Translations under genes and position numbers: made by a program
Virus record (IMG/VR): IMGVR_UViG_3300028610_001217
DNA from: a virus
Lineage: Duplodnaviria > Heunggongvirae > Uroviricota > Caudoviricetes
DNA length: 37,301 nucleotides
Direction: 5' to 3' (one strand)
Shown: positions 485-10,778 of the stretch, piece by piece
How the letters are laid out: each line of letters opens with the position of its first letter
How positions within the stretch are numbered: the first letter of the stretch is position 1
The notes under the pieces: model-generated
Database searches by the model: none
What the model saw: the letters and a program-made list of their open reading frames with translations, nothing else
What the model was told of the DNA's origin: nothing

Positions 485-1642
485 CTACCCCTTAATCACC
501 GCCAGCGGCGTTAGCTCAACTTCAATATCAACTAGGTCGCTTTGGTTAGCCATAACCTCAGCTATGTCCTTATAAGCACCTGGTGCTTCGTCAAGGTTGC
601 CTTTGTTCCGCACCGAATGAATAACCCCTTTAGCGTCAAGGATATCTATTTGTTCAGCCATATCAAGGCTGCGAATAGCGTCTTTGCGCCCCATCTTTCT
701 ACCTGCACCGTGGGAGCAAGACTTGAACGCCATTTCGTGACCCTTACCTTTAACAATGTAACTAAAGGCTCCTTGGGAACCCGGTATAATTCCGCGCTCT
801 CCTTCATAAGCTCTCGTTGCTCCCTTCCTATGAACAATAACATTTTGACCAAAATGGTTTTCCCAAGCGGCATAGTTATGCGCCACGTCAAGATATGTTT
901 CTTCTGGCCCAGATATTCCCTCGCTGACGAAAATCTTGATTACCTCATTCATCATGAACGCCCGGTTTTTACGGGCAAACTTAAGGCAGTATTCCATCTC
1001 AGCCATATAAGCTCTGCCCTCGTCGGTATCCGTCGGTAAAAATGCCAACTGCCATTCCTTCGGCACCTTTGAAAACCATCTTTCATTCAGCTCAACCGCC
1101 ACCTTATTATAATGACCGGCCACCTGGTGCCCAAGGTTCCGGCTACCGCTGTGAATCATTATATGGATATAGCCGCCTGAACCTTTTTGAATTTCAATAA
1201 AGTGGTTGCCCCCGCCTAAGGTTCCAACCTGCTTACGAGCCTTAGCATATTCCCGCTCAACGATAGGTGTATTGTCGGGCAAATCAGGCAAAAAGCCCGT
1301 CGCCTTCATTTCCTTATGCCAATTTTTGCCGACTGGAATCCGTTTACGGATAAGCCCCATAACCTTTTTCAAATCTTCTTTGCTGATATCCTTAATACCA
1401 AGGCTACACACGCACATACCACAACCAATATCGTACCCAACCGCATAAGGCACAACAACGCCCTTAGTAGCCATAATACCCCCGATTGGCATTCCGTACC
1501 CGACATGAGCGTCCGGCATAAGCGCAATATGCTTATAGACGAACGGTAATTCGGCCAAGTTATATGCCTGCTTCAACGCACCATCTTCTATATCGTCAAG
1601 CCACGCTTTTATTGGAAGTCCATTTTCTCTATAAACCTTCAA
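485..1642 (-). CDS. rtcB: RtcB family RNA ligase (3'-phosphate/2',3'-cyclic phosphate to 5'-OH)
   Basis: Motifs MPDAHVGYG, VGYDIGCG, GTLGGGNHFIE, HSGSR, HNYA, HRKGAT, IPGSQG, SHGAGR, DEAPGAYK. Confidence 0.97.
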   Translation of the reverse strand: MKVYRENGLPIKAWLDDIEDGALKQAYNLAELPFVYKHIALMPDAHVGYGMPIGGIMATKGVVVPYAVGYDIGCGMCVCSLGIKDISKEDLKKVMGLIRKRIPVGKNWHKEMKATGFLPDLPDNTPIVEREYAKARKQVGTLGGGNHFIEIQKGSGGYIHIMIHSGSRNLGHQVAGHYNKVAVELNERWFSKVPKEWQLAFLPTDTDEGRAYMAEMEYCLKFARKNRAFMMNEVIKIFVSEGISGPEETYLDVAHNYAAWENHFGQNVIVHRKGATRAYEGERGIIPGSQGAFSYIVKGKGHEMAFKSCSHGAGRKMGRKDAIRSLDMAEQIDILDAKGVIHSVRNKGNLDEAPGAYKDIAEVMANQSDLVDIEVELTPLAVIKG

Positions 1643-2558: not shown

Positions 2559-2836
2559 CAATTACACCCTCTTAATTCTGGGTAATGGTTTGGTCTGTCA
2601 CGATAAATAAAGCACTCATTGTCTATGTAAAATATCGTATTGTATTCATCTATCTTAACCGTTTTATCAGCTCGACTTAATACCTTCTGTGCAACCACTG
2701 CTCGCTGTTTAACTCGCTGCATAGGGCCATACTTGACCACAACAAAAGCAAGCCCTGCGGCAATAATAATTGTTAGGCCAAGAAAAACTATGTTAACTCT
2801 ATTTCTCAATAGTCTCCCTCTGCGCAAGCAAGACAT
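2558..2836 (-). CDS. single-TM protein, C-terminal domain paralogous to the adjacent prepilin-like protein
   Basis: TM segment IVFLGLTIIIAAGLAFVVV; TIFYIDNECF aligns with TIFYLNDDCF of the neighbour. True start may be a later TTG. Confidence 0.7.
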   Translation of the reverse strand: MSCLRRGRLLRNRVNIVFLGLTIIIAAGLAFVVVKYGPMQRVKQRAVVAQKVLSRADKTVKIDEYNTIFYIDNECFIYRDRPNHYPELRGCN

Positions 2837-3249
2837 GTAAGGCCGTTACGTCTCCACATCGAGACAACTCTGGCGCGGTCTTCCACTACAAACTCAATTG
2901 AGTATTTACCCGAAAGCACAGAAATATAAACTTCTTGCTTTAATTCACAATCAGAAATAAAATTCCCAACAGGTCGAAGATGCAATTCGTCGTATGGTAT
3001 ATTATGAAGCTTCAGCCAACGCTCTGTTTCGCCCCGAACACTTTCTGTCCTTCCGCTAACCAGCAAAATCTTATACCCAGCACCCTTATACATCCGCACT
3101 AAATTTGCTGCCCATTCGTAAACGCCATCATCAACACAACCAGATTCGAAATTGCACCAGTCCTTGCTATCGCGCCCAACTAAAAGATGAATTCTATGAG
3201 AAATATCAGCTAATGTACCATCAATATCCACAATGATGGCTTTATCCAT
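2806..3249 (-). CDS. HAD phosphatase, T4 polynucleotide kinase 3'-phosphatase-like (stand-alone)
   Basis: VDIDGTLA, VSGR, LHLRP, D..LK, VEDR..VV.MWR..GL.C motifs; no kinase domain. Confidence 0.88.
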   Translation of the reverse strand: MDKAIIVDIDGTLADISHRIHLLVGRDSKDWCNFESGCVDDGVYEWAANLVRMYKGAGYKILLVSGRTESVRGETERWLKLHNIPYDELHLRPVGNFISDCELKQEVYISVLSGKYSIEFVVEDRARVVSMWRRNGLTCLACAEGDY

Positions 3250-3943
3250 TACCTATCCTTTCTATTAACGCTGCTTCAAGTGCCACCTCAGGGTTTTCCC
3301 TAATATCTTTCTCCCAAATTCTTACTACCTCATAGCCTAACGCTCTCATAAATATATCTCGTTCCCTATCGCTTTCCCTTACCCCCGGCCTACCGTGCCA
3401 ATAGTCTCCGTCACATTCTATATTCAAGTTACAACAAGGGATGAATATATCGCATTCCCTTCCTGCATAATATTTATTATCAATATGAGTGACGCCCCAT
3501 TCATCTAAGACCGCCCTTATGGCAAGCTCTATGGTTGTGCCAGCATATGTTCTTCCTTCTCGCATCTTCCTTAACTGTTCTTGCTTTGCCTCGGGATCGC
3601 CCCATCGCCTAGCAGATGCTTCGCGCATTTTGTCCTTAGTTTCTTCTGAAGGTGAACCGCGCAATACCCCTTGTTTAGCCTTACTTATTTTAAGCTTAGT
3701 TTCTTCAGAATGTTTCTTGCCTTTCGGCCAACAAACTCCAACCCTCTTTTTCTGAGATTCGCTCATTTTCTGTTTGGTTTCCTCAGAATGCTTTCTACCT
3801 TTCATCCAAGACGGCTTACCCTTGAGGGCATTACTTATTTTAAGCTTAGTTTCTTCAGAAGTCTCTTTGCGTTTTCTGCCTTTGAGTGCGTCACCTCTCT
3901 TCTTTCGGTGTTCAACTGTTTGCTTATATCCCTTTCGGGGCAT
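3242..3943 (-). CDS. NUMOD3-repeat plus DUF559/Vsr-like endonuclease (homing-endonuclease-like)
   Basis: Repeated (H/T/P)SEETK.K(I/M) motifs; C-terminal DIFIP...IECDGDYWH...D.ERD...GY.VVRIWE. Confidence 0.8.
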   Translation of the reverse strand: MPRKGYKQTVEHRKKRGDALKGRKRKETSEETKLKISNALKGKPSWMKGRKHSEETKQKMSESQKKRVGVCWPKGKKHSEETKLKISKAKQGVLRGSPSEETKDKMREASARRWGDPEAKQEQLRKMREGRTYAGTTIELAIRAVLDEWGVTHIDNKYYAGRECDIFIPCCNLNIECDGDYWHGRPGVRESDRERDIFMRALGYEVVRIWEKDIRENPEVALEAALIERIGNG

Positions 3944-4361: not shown

Positions 4362-4765
4362 ATATCTTCCACCCCCACTACTTCCATTCCCGGTATTTCT
4401 GATTTCAATAAATGAACCGCCCTTAAGAGTTCTTTATCGGCCCCAATTAACAATTTCATTTCGTCTCGAGAATATATCTTCTTCTTACCCGGCCAATTCT
4501 CTTGGCCATATTGACTCAGAACAATTTCGTCATCTAGTGTGGGCGAATACACCCTGACATATTTAACTTCCTCGTCAATAATTTGACGCCAAGCTTCCAT
4601 TAGCTGTTTATTCCCTAATTGGCTAATATCAAAACCTTCATCAGCATATCGCTTCTCAAGTCTATCTAACATGCCTTGCGCTATCACCTCAAGGTCAGTT
4701 CCTCGGTTTTGTTTAACGCCCCGGCGCGAATGGAGGATCTGGTTTTCTAGAGTTGTATACCCCAT
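4358..4765 (-). CDS. hypothetical protein; C-terminus resembles TubC N-terminal docking-like domains
   Basis: VYSPTLDDEIVL...YSRDEMKLL...LRAVHLLK pattern; coupled to neighbours. Confidence 0.5.
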   Translation of the reverse strand: MGYTTLENQILHSRRGVKQNRGTDLEVIAQGMLDRLEKRYADEGFDISQLGNKQLMEAWRQIIDEEVKYVRVYSPTLDDEIVLSQYGQENWPGKKKIYSRDEMKLLIGADKELLRAVHLLKSEIPGMEVVGVEDI

Positions 4766-5205
4766 TGCTCCAATTCCTTAACCACTCCGTCGAATTCTTC
4801 TGGTTTATTTTTAGCAAGCCACTCCAACCAGAGCAGCCCATACAGCGTTAAATCCATTATTGTAGTAGCTTTCGATTCATCGCCTAAGTTTCCAATAACC
4901 GGATTACCATCGATACCGCTGGTCATAATAGCTTCAATTCGATCGTATTTTCTTGTTAAATTGCTGAAAAGCCCAAGTAATTCACCATGTTTTGCATAAC
5001 TATCGCGATATACCGTGTTCTTCTTAGCACACAACTTAATCATCGCTTCAGACAACCGACTAAGATTCGCGGTCAATTCCCCTGGCCGCGTTTGATCACC
5101 TTCCGGCCTGAATTGTAAATATGTTTTTGGTTGTTTAGGTGGCTCCCCTCCCTCACTTTCCTCGATCAAGTGGTCCAAATATTCATCCGTCATTCCCCCG
5201 CTCAT
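4747..5205 (-). CDS. Nmad1/DUF1599-like all-alpha nucleotide-modification-associated protein (MazG/dNTP pyrophosphatase-like)
   Basis: KKN.VY.DSY, RKYDRI, DES...T..DL.LY pattern; directly downstream of the TS homologue. Confidence 0.65.
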   Translation of the reverse strand: MSGGMTDEYLDHLIEESEGGEPPKQPKTYLQFRPEGDQTRPGELTANLSRLSEAMIKLCAKKNTVYRDSYAKHGELLGLFSNLTRKYDRIEAIMTSGIDGNPVIGNLGDESKATTIMDLTLYGLLWLEWLAKNKPEEFDGVVKELEQWGIQL

Positions 5206-6404
5206 ATTAGCGCCTCCCCGTCATCATGCATCACATACGTGGCTGCCACTATTGGCAATTGTTCAATCCCTAGCTCATCTACGATGTTACCTTGCTCCCA
5301 GCCTTGCCTCATTAGGTGCGTGTACATATACCTGATTATTTCAACCTTCCAATCGCAAAGCACCATATCCCGAATGTTTTCGGTAGCTTCTAGAAAATAG
5401 CCGTCCTGAATTAACATCCAAGTTGACAATGCCTCTTTAGTAAGCTTCAAATATTCATTCTTAACAGAATATATCTCAACGTCTTTCCCTGTAATCAGCC
5501 TATCGATAATATCATATGTCTTTTGAACATCTGCCTCAAACTCTTCCGGGCTCTCCGACTTAATTGGCAACGGTTTAACTGACTTATAGATATCGTATTT
5601 ATTCCAAACGTGGTGATAATGAGCCGCAGCTTTAACCTTACTATTCGGTTGATGATAGGCTTTATAGTATGGATTGCTTTCGTAGACATGCATGCTATCA
5701 CTGTATTGAATGTACCGTCCAATCTCAACGCCTAAATAACCGGCAAGCACTTCCTGAATCACACTAAACTGGACAATGTTGGTCGAACAATAACCCCAAA
5801 CAAAATCATTAGAACGATTGAAGACCGACATATTCAACTTGCCGTCCCGAACCTTAAAGCTGATAGCGATATTGCAAGGCGTATCTTTGGTTTCAATCTC
5901 CGTATTATCCCTAGATGGATTCCAAATAGTCATAACTGCTTGACGGCTGTTGAGATCTGCCTTCAATCGCTTATAGCATTGTTCTAACTGGTTGATATAT
6001 TTGCTCCTTCTCCCTGGTGATTCCATCAACCTTTGACCGTAAGCTCCATGAAAATTATTTCCAATACTCCCGTCCCTCCTGACAAATTCTCCTTCATCAA
6101 GATACTCATTTAAACGTGGGTTAAAATATGTAATAAACCCAGCATCACTTTTACCGGCCAATAACCACAATGATTCAGCTAAAAGGAAGAACGGGTTTAA
6201 GCGCCGGTATGGTATTGTCAGCACCCTTTTTTGAGGCTGCTCTAAGACACTTATCATCGGTTGTAATTCAAACGTCTTTTCCCCCTTTACTGTTATTTCT
6301 GTTCCCTGGCAAATACTCTCAAATGCCCTCACGAATAACTCGTTTGGGTAAGCTGCAACCATTTGATTGATGGCCAGCTCCTTGTGAAAACCTTCCCTAC
6401 TCAT
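5202..6404 (-). CDS. thymidylate-synthase-superfamily enzyme, dUMP hydroxymethylase-like
   Basis: NPFF...E.LW.LAG, GAYG.RL, SRQAV..IW, KDTPCN (catalytic Cys), NRSNDFVWG....N, DSMHVY, plus a C-terminal extension of about 150 aa. Confidence 0.85.
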   Translation of the reverse strand: MSREGFHKELAINQMVAAYPNELFVRAFESICQGTEITVKGEKTFELQPMISVLEQPQKRVLTIPYRRLNPFFLLAESLWLLAGKSDAGFITYFNPRLNEYLDEGEFVRRDGSIGNNFHGAYGQRLMESPGRRSKYINQLEQCYKRLKADLNSRQAVMTIWNPSRDNTEIETKDTPCNIAISFKVRDGKLNMSVFNRSNDFVWGYCSTNIVQFSVIQEVLAGYLGVEIGRYIQYSDSMHVYESNPYYKAYHQPNSKVKAAAHYHHVWNKYDIYKSVKPLPIKSESPEEFEADVQKTYDIIDRLITGKDVEIYSVKNEYLKLTKEALSTWMLIQDGYFLEATENIRDMVLCDWKVEIIRYMYTHLMRQGWEQGNIVDELGIEQLPIVAATYVMHDDGEALI

Positions 6405-6406
6405 AA

Positions 6407-7063
6407 CTATTCCTTTCCTCCATATAACGACCTCACTGTCTCCTCAATAGCTTCGTTGCATTCTTCTATTGTCATATTGGTCAATATTCCTGCCACCCTA
6501 GTCATGTGGTCGGGGAGCACGCCCGTCCCGCGCTCATACCATAGGAGCTTAATATCAAGTTGTTTCTTAACTGTTTTTACTACGTTTATGCCAGTAGCTT
6601 CTAGGCTATAACGTCGCCGAGTTGGGTGAACGCATTTTTCGCCGTCAGCAACCACGCAACCTTTTGACCGACAACTCCGGCAGTTTCCTTGAGAAATTAG
6701 GTAGGATTTTTCTGTTACGCTTTCAATATATTTCGCCGCCAACTTATTCATAATATTCGCCGTCAACCGCTCCAAGTTAGACAGCCTATGAAAGATAGCC
6801 ATCTTCTCAAACTTGAGGATAGTATCATAAGTTGATTGCAAAGATATGATGTGAAAGAGTGGATAATTTTTAGCCAGCTTATTGAAGTCGGGAGCACACC
6901 AAGCACAACCGCCATTCTTCTCATGATTACTGCACCCTACACAATAATCCGCCTTATTGCCTTCGAGCAAAATTATCTCTTCAGGCTTAATAACCTTGTG
7001 ATAAACTTTCATTGGATACTCGCTGCCGCTCCCGGTTACATGAGTAATCCCAATAGTGCTCAC
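6407..7063 (-). CDS. DUF2284-like Cys-rich metal-binding protein
   Basis: CVGC...GGC.WCAP, GNCRSC...C.......C.HP...RYSLEATGINV pattern. Confidence 0.75.
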   Translation of the reverse strand: MSTIGITHVTGSGSEYPMKVYHKVIKPEEIILLEGNKADYCVGCSNHEKNGGCAWCAPDFNKLAKNYPLFHIISLQSTYDTILKFEKMAIFHRLSNLERLTANIMNKLAAKYIESVTEKSYLISQGNCRSCRSKGCVVADGEKCVHPTRRRYSLEATGINVVKTVKKQLDIKLLWYERGTGVLPDHMTRVAGILTNMTIEECNEAIEETVRSLYGGKE

Positions 7064-9879
7064 ATTACACCTCTCAATATCTTGATGAACTCCGCCGTCT
7101 TTTCGTAGCCGTTTGTATTTTGTTTAAGCAAGCCGTTAAGCAACATAAATCTCGTCCAACCTTCGCAAGTCTGTTTATCTTCATCCAACCAAATAATCAT
7201 ATCCTTCACCCTAACATACCGGGTGTTGTAAAACAGCTCCCGCAACGTTTCTTTATCGGCCAAAAACTCCTTAATTTTCGTTAAGCGTTCTTCAACCTTA
7301 CGCTTGTTTGCCAGTTTAGTGTCACTGTAGTGGGAATAGCCTAAGCTGCCTTTGTTGTAAATCTCATATAAAAACTCTACCACCTTGGTCACGTGGGCAG
7401 GCTCAACTATGATCTTTTCGCCGGTTTCGTCCGTACTGAAAAGCCTCGCCGCCATGGATACTGATAATCGGGCTATCTTGATTCGCTGATCAGCACCCTC
7501 AACTAAGGGGATAGTCGAACTAAAATTCTTGCCCATTAGTTTGGCATGCCCCAAGATAGCCTTAACTGCTTTCGGCTTAAACTCAATTTGCTCCGACCTT
7601 CGGCTCCAGGCCCAAAGAACTAGCTTATTGCAAAGATCAGCTGTATATATATGCTCCTTCTTATCTTTTTCGCCTTGGTTAATGATATCCGGGTCAACTT
7701 CTTCAGTGGCACAACTGATAGCGAAGTCAAAGCGGCTGATATCTTCGGGCTTACCGATAATATCCTTGATAGCTTCAATGCCGAAAGGGTACTCGCTAAG
7801 CGGCCTATTATCCCTGGGGTTACTGATCCAAATAAGCCTAGTTCTGGCGTGAGTTTTAGATGTTTGAACCATCGTAATTTCGGCAATACCGCTACTCCTG
7901 ATTCCCGACATTTCGCCTATCTTTGCTTGGCTTAAGCCAGTGACTTCATCAATAGCTACAAGCCTGCGATCATTTAGCGGTATTTTTCCCCAAGCAATAA
8001 GCCAACCATTTGCGGTTGGTATCATACCCCCAGTTAATCCGGCCTTACTTGAGCTTTCCCCCGTAACCATTTCGCCCACTCGGTAATGACTCATCAATGA
8101 TTGAACAGCTTCCGTTTTGCCCGTCCTGGTGTCGCCTAAGAGCATGCACTCACACCAACCACGTTTGAGCCGCTTGCCTTGAAAGTTGAATGATAATCCT
8201 GAATGTATTACTAGATCTATCGCCATCAATAAATCATTACGGCCATATATTTGGGTTACATTATCTGTTAAATCTTCATGTATTTTCTTTAGCTTATGCT
8301 CAATAGCATCATCGTTAGGCGCACATTGAAAAACCTCAAGTTCTTTCTTTATCTCCGGTGTTAATTCAAATGCCATAACGCTATCTTGAGCCAACTCCGC
8401 TATTTCTATTAATAAGGTAGTGTGCTGAGTTTTGGGCTCAACGGTCGATAGCGCTACAAGCGTATATGATTGATTAGCTACAAGCCCGTGCCCCACATAA
8501 AAACCCATTGCTCGAACATAATTTTGTTCTGTTTCCCCGGCATCTACTTCAGGTATGAGGTGAACCATCTCAATATTCATATATCCTTTGGTTTCCCGGC
8601 TAACATTGCCGCAGCCTTTGAAGACTGCTGCTTTTTTTCGTATAACTTCCCATAATCTATCTTTGTTGACATTAATCATTTCTAAAACAACTGGATCTTG
8701 AGCGTTAAACTCTTGAATCTTTTCCCCACTATATTGCAGGCTGCACAAGGTACACTTTTTGTCACCAGGTCGATCGCATTTATATTTAACTTTGGAGGGA
8801 ATTGTAAATGAGGATTCCCCCTTCCCGGCTACAATTGCATTTATTCTACACCTCTTGCCTGTGAGCGCAGCCCTATCGGAAGTGCTTAAGTGCGTATCAA
8901 TTGGGAAGTCCTTACCTTTTTCTTTTTCAGTTTGTTCATAATCAGGCGATCGTGCCATCAAGCCCTGGAAGTCTTTCTTACCTTGGCCATTACCGTGGAA
9001 ATAATCAGTAATGTCTGAACCCTTTTCCTCCAAAGGTAGCAATACAATCTTGGTAACACTGGCTACCCTAAATAAGTTTTGAGCTACCTTTCTGGCTCCG
9101 GAAGTGCCCGGTGCATCAACGTCATAACAAATATAAACTTCTTTGCCCTTAAATAAGGCGTTCCATTCTTCCTTCCAAGTACCCGCTCCGCCCGTGACAG
9201 TAACTGCGTTGAACCCTAACTGATTGGCAATAATGGCATCCATCTCGCCCTCGCATATCAAAATAGTATCATCATCTAAAGAAGTAACCGGGAATAGCCT
9301 TGCTGCGCCATGCCCCCGCTTGTAAGACGTCATCTTAGGTTCTTTGCCCTTAGCTCCCGGTTTGTATTTACGAACGTTTACAATGCGTCCTTGCGCGTCC
9401 TTGATGGGGATAGTGAGCCGCTCGAAGTCCCAACCTAACTGGTATTTCTTTATGGTTTTTTCCGATATTCCTCGTTTAGTTTCAAGCCACTTTTTCTTCT
9501 TAGAAGATTTCATTAAGGTTTCGTGCCAAGCCTTAACTTCTTTTTCTAGAGTTTGATATTCTTTCTCAGTTCTAATATTGACCTTGATAGGCTGTTTGGG
9601 TTGCTTCTTCTGAGGTTCATCATCGTCAACCCATTCGCCGGTAGCTTTTTCAACTGCCTTCTTAGCGGTGGGAAAATTACTATTATGCTGTTTACGATGA
9701 AAGTTATAAGCATCACCGGCCTCACCGCAGGCAAAGCACATATATTTGCCGGTTGTCAAATTGATTGACATTGAGGGGTTTTCGTCTTTGTCGTGAAAGC
9801 AGCACGATACCTGATTTTCACCTTCTTTGTTTCTTAGTTTTTCGAAATATTGTTTATAGAATGAGTAATATTTTGCCAT
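7060..9879 (-). CDS. DNA primase (CHC2 Zn finger plus Toprim) fused to an MCM-like AAA+ helicase
   Basis: CCFHDKDENPS...CFACG; ICEGEMD and YDVD Toprim; CDRP...CTLC Zn site; GDTRTGKT, IDEV, arginine-finger SRFD. Confidence 0.9.
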   Translation of the reverse strand: MAKYYSFYKQYFEKLRNKEGENQVSCCFHDKDENPSMSINLTTGKYMCFACGEAGDAYNFHRKQHNSNFPTAKKAVEKATGEWVDDDEPQKKQPKQPIKVNIRTEKEYQTLEKEVKAWHETLMKSSKKKKWLETKRGISEKTIKKYQLGWDFERLTIPIKDAQGRIVNVRKYKPGAKGKEPKMTSYKRGHGAARLFPVTSLDDDTILICEGEMDAIIANQLGFNAVTVTGGAGTWKEEWNALFKGKEVYICYDVDAPGTSGARKVAQNLFRVASVTKIVLLPLEEKGSDITDYFHGNGQGKKDFQGLMARSPDYEQTEKEKGKDFPIDTHLSTSDRAALTGKRCRINAIVAGKGESSFTIPSKVKYKCDRPGDKKCTLCSLQYSGEKIQEFNAQDPVVLEMINVNKDRLWEVIRKKAAVFKGCGNVSRETKGYMNIEMVHLIPEVDAGETEQNYVRAMGFYVGHGLVANQSYTLVALSTVEPKTQHTTLLIEIAELAQDSVMAFELTPEIKKELEVFQCAPNDDAIEHKLKKIHEDLTDNVTQIYGRNDLLMAIDLVIHSGLSFNFQGKRLKRGWCECMLLGDTRTGKTEAVQSLMSHYRVGEMVTGESSSKAGLTGGMIPTANGWLIAWGKIPLNDRRLVAIDEVTGLSQAKIGEMSGIRSSGIAEITMVQTSKTHARTRLIWISNPRDNRPLSEYPFGIEAIKDIIGKPEDISRFDFAISCATEEVDPDIINQGEKDKKEHIYTADLCNKLVLWAWSRRSEQIEFKPKAVKAILGHAKLMGKNFSSTIPLVEGADQRIKIARLSVSMAARLFSTDETGEKIIVEPAHVTKVVEFLYEIYNKGSLGYSHYSDTKLANKRKVEERLTKIKEFLADKETLRELFYNTRYVRVKDMIIWLDEDKQTCEGWTRFMLLNGLLKQNTNGYEKTAEFIKILRGVM

Positions 9880-9908
9880 ATAGGCACACTTTCTACTTTA
9901 TTGGTCAC

Positions 9909-9937
9909 TTTAACCCTCTCCTTTTGAGAGAGTTAAA
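9909..9937. repeat. inverted repeat upstream of the primase gene
   Basis: TTTAACCCTCTC-CTTTT-GAGAGAGTTAAA, 11 of 12 positions pair. Confidence 0.6.
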
Positions 9938-9985
9938 TAGATAACTAAATAATAAATACTAAATAATAGATAAATAGAAAAAAGA

Positions 9986-10006
9986 AATATCTATGATATA
10001 GATATT
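9986..10006. promoter_or_regulatory. perfect 9-bp inverted repeat, operator-like
   Basis: AATATCTAT-GAT-ATAGATATT within an AT-rich tract. Confidence 0.45.
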
Positions 10007-10019
10007 CCTAATAAAATGA

Positions 10020-10140
10020 CAAGCCCTAAGGGTGAACCCCAGTAAGTCCGAAAGGAGGAGATTGTTTGAACAGTAACAATCTCAAAAAAGGAGAGCCCGG
10101 TCACAGGCAGAAACTTACTGAGGTTCACTCTTGGGGCTTG
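10020..10140 (+). ncRNA. putative structured RNA: 28-bp closing helix capped by a multibranch junction
   Basis: 10020-10047 pairs with 10113-10140 (25 Watson-Crick, 2 G.U, 1 mismatch on +); inner 9-bp hairpin 10058-10083. Strand inferred from G.U versus A.C asymmetry. Confidence 0.6.
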
Positions 10141-10249
10141 AAGGTTTATTGTATACGCTCCTTTCTTTTTCTTTCCGTGACCACCTTACAATAACTATCA
10201 TAATACATAATGTTGTGCCATAACCAACTATTTTCAGAAAGTTTTAAAA

Positions 10250-10705
10250 CACCGCTCGCTACCTACAAAAACGCATTAGACATATCACTTTTACATATTT
10301 TACACATATGCCTATTTGTGTAATTAGGGAATTACTATTAACGTAATAATAAGAACCCGCAGGTTACGGAATCACGAAAAAAATTATTGACCCCCGGTGA
10401 GGCAGATTTATTTTTCAAAAATAAATTTTCACTAAAAGTTTATTACCCTTTAGGGGTCACATAATTTTTTTTTCACGTAACCCCCGGTAGAGCGCTTGTC
10501 AACTTTTTTCGCCGCTCGCTAGCGTTTTAAGAACCCCCTGGTAGCAGCGTCGGGCTAGACATACCGCCTTTTTTCGCAATGTTTAAACCGTATTCGCAAT
10601 GCTTACGGACTTCACAAAAGCGCTCGTATAAGGATCACTATTTCAAAAACCTGTTTCATGATGCTTATTGACTATGTCTCCGCCTTTTTAACTACGCTCG
10701 CTTAC
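10250..10705. repeat. non-coding region with short dispersed repeats; candidate replication origin
   Basis: CGCTCG(C/T)T x4, ACCCCC(T)GGT x3, TTCGCAATG x2 spaced 20 bp, A/T tracts; no ORF of 60 aa or more; next to the primase-helicase. Confidence 0.45.
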
Positions 10706-10716
10706 TTATTTTAACG

Positions 10717-10750
10717 AGAAAAAGACCGGGCAGTTTGAAGCCACCCGGTC
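10717..10750 (-). terminator. intrinsic terminator after the SSB gene
   Basis: On the minus strand GACCGGG-loop-CCCGGTC followed by TTTTT. Confidence 0.8.
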
Positions 10751-10778
10751 AATTTTGTGCTCAATATTGCGCCACTAG

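Follow-up and report, generated by a model that had tools for sequence, protein, structure and literature searches.

The window, a 37,301-nt stretch of phage DNA, lies within a complete circular phage genome of 101 kb (G000). A 218-residue DUF2284 protein is encoded there between a primase-helicase fusion and a thymidylate-synthase (TS) homologue (Table 1). The DUF2284 start shares four nucleotides (GTGA) with the primase-helicase stop, the reading frame ends 2 nt before the TS homologue begins, and Shine-Dalgarno-like sequences precede both the DUF2284 and TS starts. Judged by sequence, the TS homologue is of the dUMP hydroxymethylase type: its closest relatives, SPO1 gp29 and SP10 gp188, are both annotated as dUMP hydroxymethylases, and the catalytic residues are intact (E77, C177, R197-S198-N-D200, the dUMP-type N210, H239, and Y241). 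The Nmad1-like gene comes right after it, as gp189 comes right after the hydroxymethylase gene in SP10. Its product is probably a dTTPase/dUTPase, an enzyme whose role in such a pathway was demonstrated in another phage (PMC13458397).

The same gene run holds a HAD/PNKP-type phosphatase, which is possibly a nucleotide-pool enzyme or a partner of RtcB, and an RtcB RNA ligase; a second RNA ligase is encoded elsewhere in the genome. A homing endonuclease gene (NUMOD3 plus Vsr/DUF559-like) is inserted in the operon, and its position varies in relatives (L010/L011). A small phage protein in the window has a type IV pilin-like N-terminal methylation motif. The ~900 bp between an SSB-like gene and the primase contain no long ORF; this stretch is gene-free in L010/L011 too and is possibly a replication origin.

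Table 1. Positions of the features discussed (window numbering unless a genome position is given).
Feature	Position	Strand	Basis or remark
RtcB RNA ligase	485-1642	-	
Small pilin-like phage protein	2256-2561	-	PF07963
HAD/PNKP-type phosphatase	2806..3249	-	domain match
Homing endonuclease	3242-3943	-	
Nmad1-like all-alpha NTP pyrophosphatase	4747..5205	-	32% identical to SP10 gp189
TS homologue, SPO1 gp29/SP10 gp188 dUMP hydroxymethylase type	5202..6404	-	sequence comparison
DUF2284 (PF10050) protein, nucleotide-linked subfamily, 218 aa	6407..7063	-	GTG start; Pfam, alignment, model
S153-x-E155-x2-G158 motif, with W175	6590..6607	-	94-100% conserved
Four-Cys motif C128-x2-C131-x4-C136-x7-C144	6632..6682	-	invariant, 129 homologues
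N-terminal three-Cys motif C41-x2-C44-x8-C53	6905..6943	-	invariant, 129 homologues
Primase (CHC2/Toprim)-MCM helicase fusion	7060..9879	-	Pfam; 4-nt overlap with DUF2284 start
Stretch without long ORF	9880-10778		
Hypermodification cluster	G000:C1:90001-93617 (L005:9002-12618)	same coding strand as DUF2284	
5-hmdU DNA kinase (P-loop)	genome 90001-90618		PF18748, 35.1 bits vs 27
Amino acid:DNA transferase (clade 2)	genome 91242-92300		PF18724, 69.6 bits vs 26.2
Second RNA ligase	G000:99237-99956		

The protein matches the Pfam DUF2284 model (PF10050) over positions 2-160 of 161 (69.6 bits; cut-off, 25; E=3.5e-19). A word-index protein search returned three close homologues and a profile library 429. 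Seven Cys residues (41, 44, 53, 128, 131, 136, and 144) are invariant in an alignment of 129 homologues, in which C56 and C202 are not conserved. The preliminary description of this DNA had noted two Cys clusters and tight coupling to the primase-helicase and TS genes; both are confirmed, except that C56, the Cys of its 'WC' pair, drops out and the spacing is corrected. The sequence makes the three-Cys motif a candidate site-differentiated Fe-S or Zn site and the four-Cys motif a candidate [4Fe-4S] or Zn site. Together they could accommodate an open-site and a closed Fe-S cluster, or else Zn, which fits the Cys pattern just as well; metal binding is predicted for the DUF2284 family. S153, E155, G158, and W175 are candidate catalytic or ligand-binding residues. 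The charge balance (29 K/R against 24 D/E) is not strongly basic and thus gives no evident sign of DNA binding.

Searches of PHROG, NCBIfam, and PADLOC yielded no family, a single-protein scan of viral contigs yielded no matches, and the annotated cultured phages in the collection contain no DUF2284 match; a PF10050 hit of 13.3 bits in SP10, interrupted by two stops, was dismissed as noise. The protein has no PF18723 match, and radical SAM (rSAM) membership is ruled out by the absence of both a CxxxCxxC motif and a PF04055 match. The literature searched mentions DUF2284 in passing, in tables, and never in connection with phages or DNA; one selenoprotein has been recorded in which DUF2284 is fused to arsenite methyltransferase (PMC13188914).

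The AlphaFold model of the protein has a pLDDT of 94.7. Foldseek found no match in the PDB at E<=0.001, its best hit being CblC at E 0.06. In a wide structural search most top matches belonged to the nitroreductase-like/B12 superfamily: the MetH reactivation domain scored best (Z 7.3, rmsd 3.7, 138 aligned), and nitroreductases (up to 6.5), CblD (6.0), QueG (Z 5.5, rmsd 4.2, 142 aligned), and RdhA (4.4) were also recovered, all with Z-scores below 8, the tool's reliable level. On this model a nitroreductase/CblC/QueG-like alpha-beta fold is likely; fold class by itself indicates no function. QueG is a metal-dependent nucleic-acid deoxygenase, and the search against QueG-like folds suggested at the outset did recover that fold, if weakly. 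The protein is not a QueG: the ferredoxin-type CxxCxxCxxxC motifs of that enzyme are absent among its Cys residues (41, 44, 53, 56, 128, 131, 136, 144, and 202).

The preliminary description also held that DUF2284 sits where a hypermodification enzyme would be, the known hypermodification genes being missing. They are indeed absent from the window, but the kinase and the transferase are encoded just past its left edge. A cluster for a 5-hmdU DNA kinase, a class-II GATase, an amino acid:DNA transferase (ADDT), an LMW phosphatase, and an amidoligase lies 1.6-5.2 kb beyond that edge, ~8 kb downstream of DUF2284; we therefore dropped the idea that DUF2284 replaces the kinase or transferase. By its gene content the genome is of the kinase/ADDT hypermodification kind, and the phage seems to replace T in its DNA. 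Amidoligase/amidotransferase clusters of such type are listed as uncharacterised (PMC8989533). MazG-like and Fic genes precede the cluster. Across the whole genome we found no rSAM (PF04055), ThyX, Tet/JBP, or PF18723 match, and no match to a PolA-type polymerase or dCMP/dCTP deaminase. A pseudaminic-acid-like sugar biosynthesis cluster, read from ORF starts only, stands just before the terminase genes (G000:C1:26009-38481; L007, L008).

A survey of DUF2284 loci in viral, metagenome, and assembly collections revealed three settings: the primase-DUF2284-hydroxymethylase-Nmad order of the present lineage; a phage clade with UDG-PolA and the order kinase-DUF2284-Nmad-polymerase; and cellular islands where one rSAM/SPASM family is joined by a Dcd-fold protein bearing a C-terminal membrane helix. 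Co-occurrence with TS homologues in other phages, on which the original proposal had staked itself, was found: DUF2284 and a dUMP-hydroxymethylase-type TS stand together in three distantly related lineages. Besides that of G000, these are L016, with a DUF2284 protein 34% identical to the window's, and G064/L208, where the DUF2284 gene is three genes upstream of the hydroxymethylase and its product escapes detection by BLAST from the window's protein. Other lineages carry DUF2284 beside 5-hmU kinases, ADDT, Nmad1-like genes, and deaminases; in the UDG-PolA clade (support 98), a 5-hmU kinase, ADDT, or Nmad-like gene lies within 3 kb of DUF2284 in 19 of the 26 dereplicated members.

Among 72 clusters dereplicated at 85%, a nucleotide-related gene neighbours DUF2284 in 49 (42 without counting rSAM) and the specific rSAM/SPASM family lies within 3 kb in 22, counts that are partly circular because the neighbour profiles derive from these loci themselves; Pfam was used to check representatives. 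The TS-neighbour count of seven includes three divergent cellular TS-like genes, which were not used as support. Two canonical DUF2284 genes taken as controls have no nucleotide-modification neighbours. Because the neighbours recur across settings and the controls lack them, we regard the link of DUF2284 to pyrimidine-nucleotide, that is uracil/thymine, modification as real and recurrent.

The relation to the kinase is close. DUF2284 is fused to the C-terminus of the 5-hmU kinase in G001 and directly follows the kinase gene in L014, L034, L054, L070, and L095. This fusion to a DNA-acting enzyme parallels fusions of kinases with other tailoring enzymes (PMC8989533) and could mean that DUF2284 is itself a tailoring redox enzyme that elaborates hmU or the ADDT product into a hypermodified base not yet described; the chemically uncharacterised GATase/amidoligase-type cluster of G000 would leave room for one. 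We consider this rather unlikely. In G000 the gene is coupled to pre-replicative genes and stands 8 kb away from the tailoring genes, and across genomes it persists alongside unrelated sets: ADDT with PLP enzyme and rSAM, ADDT with aldo-keto reductase, GT-B with epimerase, or GATase with amidoligase. Such persistence is unexpected of a base-specific enzyme, as DUF2284 had first been pictured, and points instead to a step common to different hypermodification chemistries, either in the slot of aGPT-Pplase1 (PF18723) or in precursor supply.

One phage contig carries two DUF2284 paralogues on either side of an Nmad-like gene (L101:469-3340). At L090:2783-5319 an undescribed tailoring set of ADDT, dual-specificity phosphatase, and aldo-keto reductase precedes the kinase and DUF2284. 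Two fragments, L127 and L128, have rSAM and Nmad-like genes (L127 also a kinase) and no DUF2284 in the usual slot.

The cellular cassette consists of the rSAM/SPASM gene, a small protein, the Dcd-fold protein, DUF2284, and sometimes a PF05014 nucleotide hydrolase. It was found at L018:6004-8940, on the edge of a Sporomusa prophage, and at about 30 other loci, and it shows no sign of hmU-DNA machinery. A housekeeping thymidylate role is less likely for it, as the Dcd-fold protein is membrane-anchored. Since the cassettes look like nucleotide-signalling defence modules, recur near TIR, transposase, and peptidase genes, and have Dcd-fold partners of effector-like build (18 of 20 with a C-terminal hydrophobic helix of mean hydropathy 2.1 or more), the phage copy might derive from them and serve counter-defence or nucleotide clearing. 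DUF2284 would then bind or destroy a modified pyrimidine nucleotide and be dispensable for making DNA. This origin appears unlikely: PADLOC has no match for either DUF2284 or the Dcd-fold protein, and the kinase fusion and the fixed position in replication operons suit biosynthesis better. In cellular islands at four loci (L028:2497-3351, L032, L041, and L049) a divergent TS-like protein keeps PC and has RNH replacing RSxD; its gene accompanies papain-like peptidase and IrrE-like genes on the strand opposite to DUF2284.

The distribution of aGPT-Pplase1 was compared with that of DUF2284 in 49 IMG/VR viral records with a hydroxymethylase-type TS (behind L145-L224). PF18723 is present in 38 records, none of which has DUF2284; DUF2284 is present in two, one of them a 16% fragment, and both lack PF18723. 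PF18723 is likewise absent from all four DUF2284-positive genomes that are complete (G000, G001, and G002) or nearly so (G064, 89%), whereas the positive controls SP10 and LKO4 matched. A rough Fisher test of this exclusion gives P = 0.04, or 0.002 with G001/G002, ignoring kinship and resting on four near-complete DUF2284 genomes, two of them kin. The exclusion, the hydroxymethylase association in three lineages, and the kinase fusion speak against a generic Zn-binding passenger that sits in the replication operon and takes no part in base modification. We hold such a passenger to be improbable, even though canonical DUF2284 genes stand alone in gut bacteria and phage replication and nucleotide genes cluster anyway.

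ADDT occurs in only six of the 49 records, against 38 with PF18723, which suggests that Pplase1 is a general companion of the hydroxymethylase, with a role, for example, in converting hmU to T. Three complete records have neither PF18723 nor DUF2284; they are SPO1-like, with TS proteins 56-57% identical to gp29 and no kinase match. The DNA of ViI and M6 contains ordinary T beside the modified base. Among known phages it is the SPO1-type ones that keep their hmU unconverted, as is stated for SP8 (PMC5889632). In PhiW-14 and SP10 hmU in DNA becomes either the hypermodified base or T, by a route to T that was stated to be unknown in 2018 (PMC5889632) and for which the literature searched offers no later answer. 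As SPO1-type phages keep hmU and SPO1-like records lack Pplase1, Pplase1 may be the hmU-to-T handler and DUF2284 its non-homologous substitute. In SP10 gp186 (PMC5889632 Table 3) kinase and Pplase1 are fused in the order seen for kinase and DUF2284 in G001. SP10 makes glutamyl-T although its genome gives a match to Pplase1 and none to ADDT; the glutamyl transfer may thus fall to Pplase1 in that phage, which would alter what DUF2284 replaces.

G001 (L105-L108) and G002 (L109-L112) are complete 77-kb phages with ADDT, PLP enzyme, 5-hmU kinase, and Nmad-like genes. Searches with Pfam, PHROG, the window's TS protein, and a broad six-frame profile detected no TS-family gene in either, and neither has Tet/JBP or ThyX; they therefore need another source of hmU. 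Both carry the rSAM/SPASM family of the cellular islands, which, with or without DUF2284, is a candidate for that source. The 19 viral records found with the rSAM query, most of them fragments, also have no TS match. Set against the SP10 order, kinase-x-hydroxymethylase-Nmad-polymerase, DUF2284 of G001/G002 stands equally well where the hydroxymethylase would be expected.

These genomes raise the prospect that DUF2284 acts upstream, as a redox or accessory partner of a C5-functionalising enzyme in the oxygen-free making of hmU; its partner would be the rSAM/SPASM protein in G001/G002 and in cells and the TS-type enzyme in G000. In a variant, DUF2284 would oxidise the thymine methyl group and so recycle host dTMP into hmdUMP. 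Apart from the missing hmU source and the recurrent rSAM neighbour, this role is favoured by the position of DUF2284 in the hydroxymethylase slot of G001/G002 and next to the hydroxymethylase in G000, and by dCMP-deaminase, Dcd-fold, or PF05014 genes beside it elsewhere. However, the hydroxymethylase of G000 is intact and its genome contains no rSAM gene, which makes an rSAM partner unnecessary there; TS-type hydroxymethylases do without DUF2284 in cultured phages and in 47 of the 49 viral records; and the exclusion of Pplase1 is left unexplained. Both variants taken together, the upstream role remains a minority possibility, though one to be reckoned with. A more speculative scheme, to which we give little credence, joins both directions: rSAM would make hmU and DUF2284 would reduce it to T, an oxygen-independent two-step route to uracil-C5 modification without thymidylate synthase, of which the TS-less G001/G002 would use both steps and G000 only the reductase half, beside its classical hydroxymethylase.

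The reading we prefer starts from gene identity, the conserved Cys residues, a weakly matched fold class, co-occurrence, slot equivalence, and mutual exclusion; from these we infer the metal, the substrate, the direction of reaction, and the function of Pplase1 itself, as well as every chemical step that follows. The TS homologue would convert dUMP to hmdUMP, the Nmad1-like enzyme would probably clear dTTP/dUTP and let hmU into DNA, and the kinase/amidotransferase/ADDT/amidoligase cluster would decorate part of the hmU. DUF2284 would belong to the 5-hydroxymethyluracil pathway as a redox enzyme dependent on a metal, probably in Fe-S form, and take on the job of the unrelated aGPT-Pplase1 of other hydroxymethylase phages. 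Most likely it would reduce undecorated hmU, or its phosphate ester, back to thymine in a QueG-like deoxygenation. That DUF2284 acts in the hmU/T pathway is quite probable, and that it replaces Pplase1 comes a little short of an even chance; to the full statement, an Fe-S redox enzyme in the Pplase1 slot that reduces hmU to T, we assign a probability of roughly 0.35.

The hmU-to-T reading is weakened by observations of several kinds: SP10 has Pplase1 without ADDT and G064 has no kinase match; DUF2284 can be placed in the hydroxymethylase slot of G001/G002, and the cellular cassettes lack hmU-DNA machinery; the fold Z-scores stay below 8, Zn is as compatible as Fe-S, and the protein is not strongly basic; and the slot is without DUF2284 in L127/L128, which are fragments, the exclusion itself coming from four genomes of which two are kin.

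The exclusion pattern singles out aGPT-Pplase1 and DUF2284, both small and expressible, as candidates for the hmU-to-T step and gives DUF2284 its first functional handle. Complete phages with downstream hmU machinery and no known hmU source point to an rSAM route. Either that route or the hmU-to-T step would be new nucleic-acid redox chemistry; if true, the two-step scheme would yield thymine outside ThyA and ThyX and name an enzyme for the hmU-to-T step.

A core fold in common with QueG, RdhA, CblC-CblD, and the MetH reactivation domain is suggested for DUF2284 at Z 4.4-7.3, but QueG has about 370 residues against 218, and identity across the nitroreductase-like B12 superfamily is 6-11%. Canonical DUF2284 proteins of anaerobic bacteria and methanogens share the seven Cys residues, S-x-E-x-x-G, and the W (Atlas TM 0.85); the nucleotide-linked subfamily differs in an N-terminal Y/H-x-T-x-x-G extension, GGC replacing WSC, and R150, and, unlike canonical DUF2284, is set in nucleotide-modification contexts. 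Like DUF2284, aGPT-Pplase1 (SP10 gp186 C-terminus, PhiW-14 gp72, ViI gp160) is found with dUMP hydroxymethylase, and its fusion to the kinase in SP10 mirrors that of DUF2284 in G001; it is missing from SPO1-like records. Its fold is helical and glycosylase-like, whereas that of DUF2284 appears alpha-beta and nitroreductase-like, with seven Cys residues, and the sequences are unrelated, so that a substitution of one for the other would be a functional analogy only.

Thymidine hypermodification in SP10, PhiW-14, ViI, M6/YuA, and PaMx11 employs dUMP hydroxymethylase, 5-HMUDK, and AADT/aGPT-Pplase2 (PMC5889632, PMC8989533, PMC13458397). G000 resembles the SP10-type systems in its hydroxymethylase, Nmad1-like gene, P-loop 5-hmU kinase, and ADDT, and in the hydroxymethylase-Nmad order. 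It differs from them in lacking matches to PF18723, rSAM, PolA-type polymerase, and dCMP deaminase, and in possessing a GATase/amidoligase/LMW-PTP tailoring set and DUF2284.
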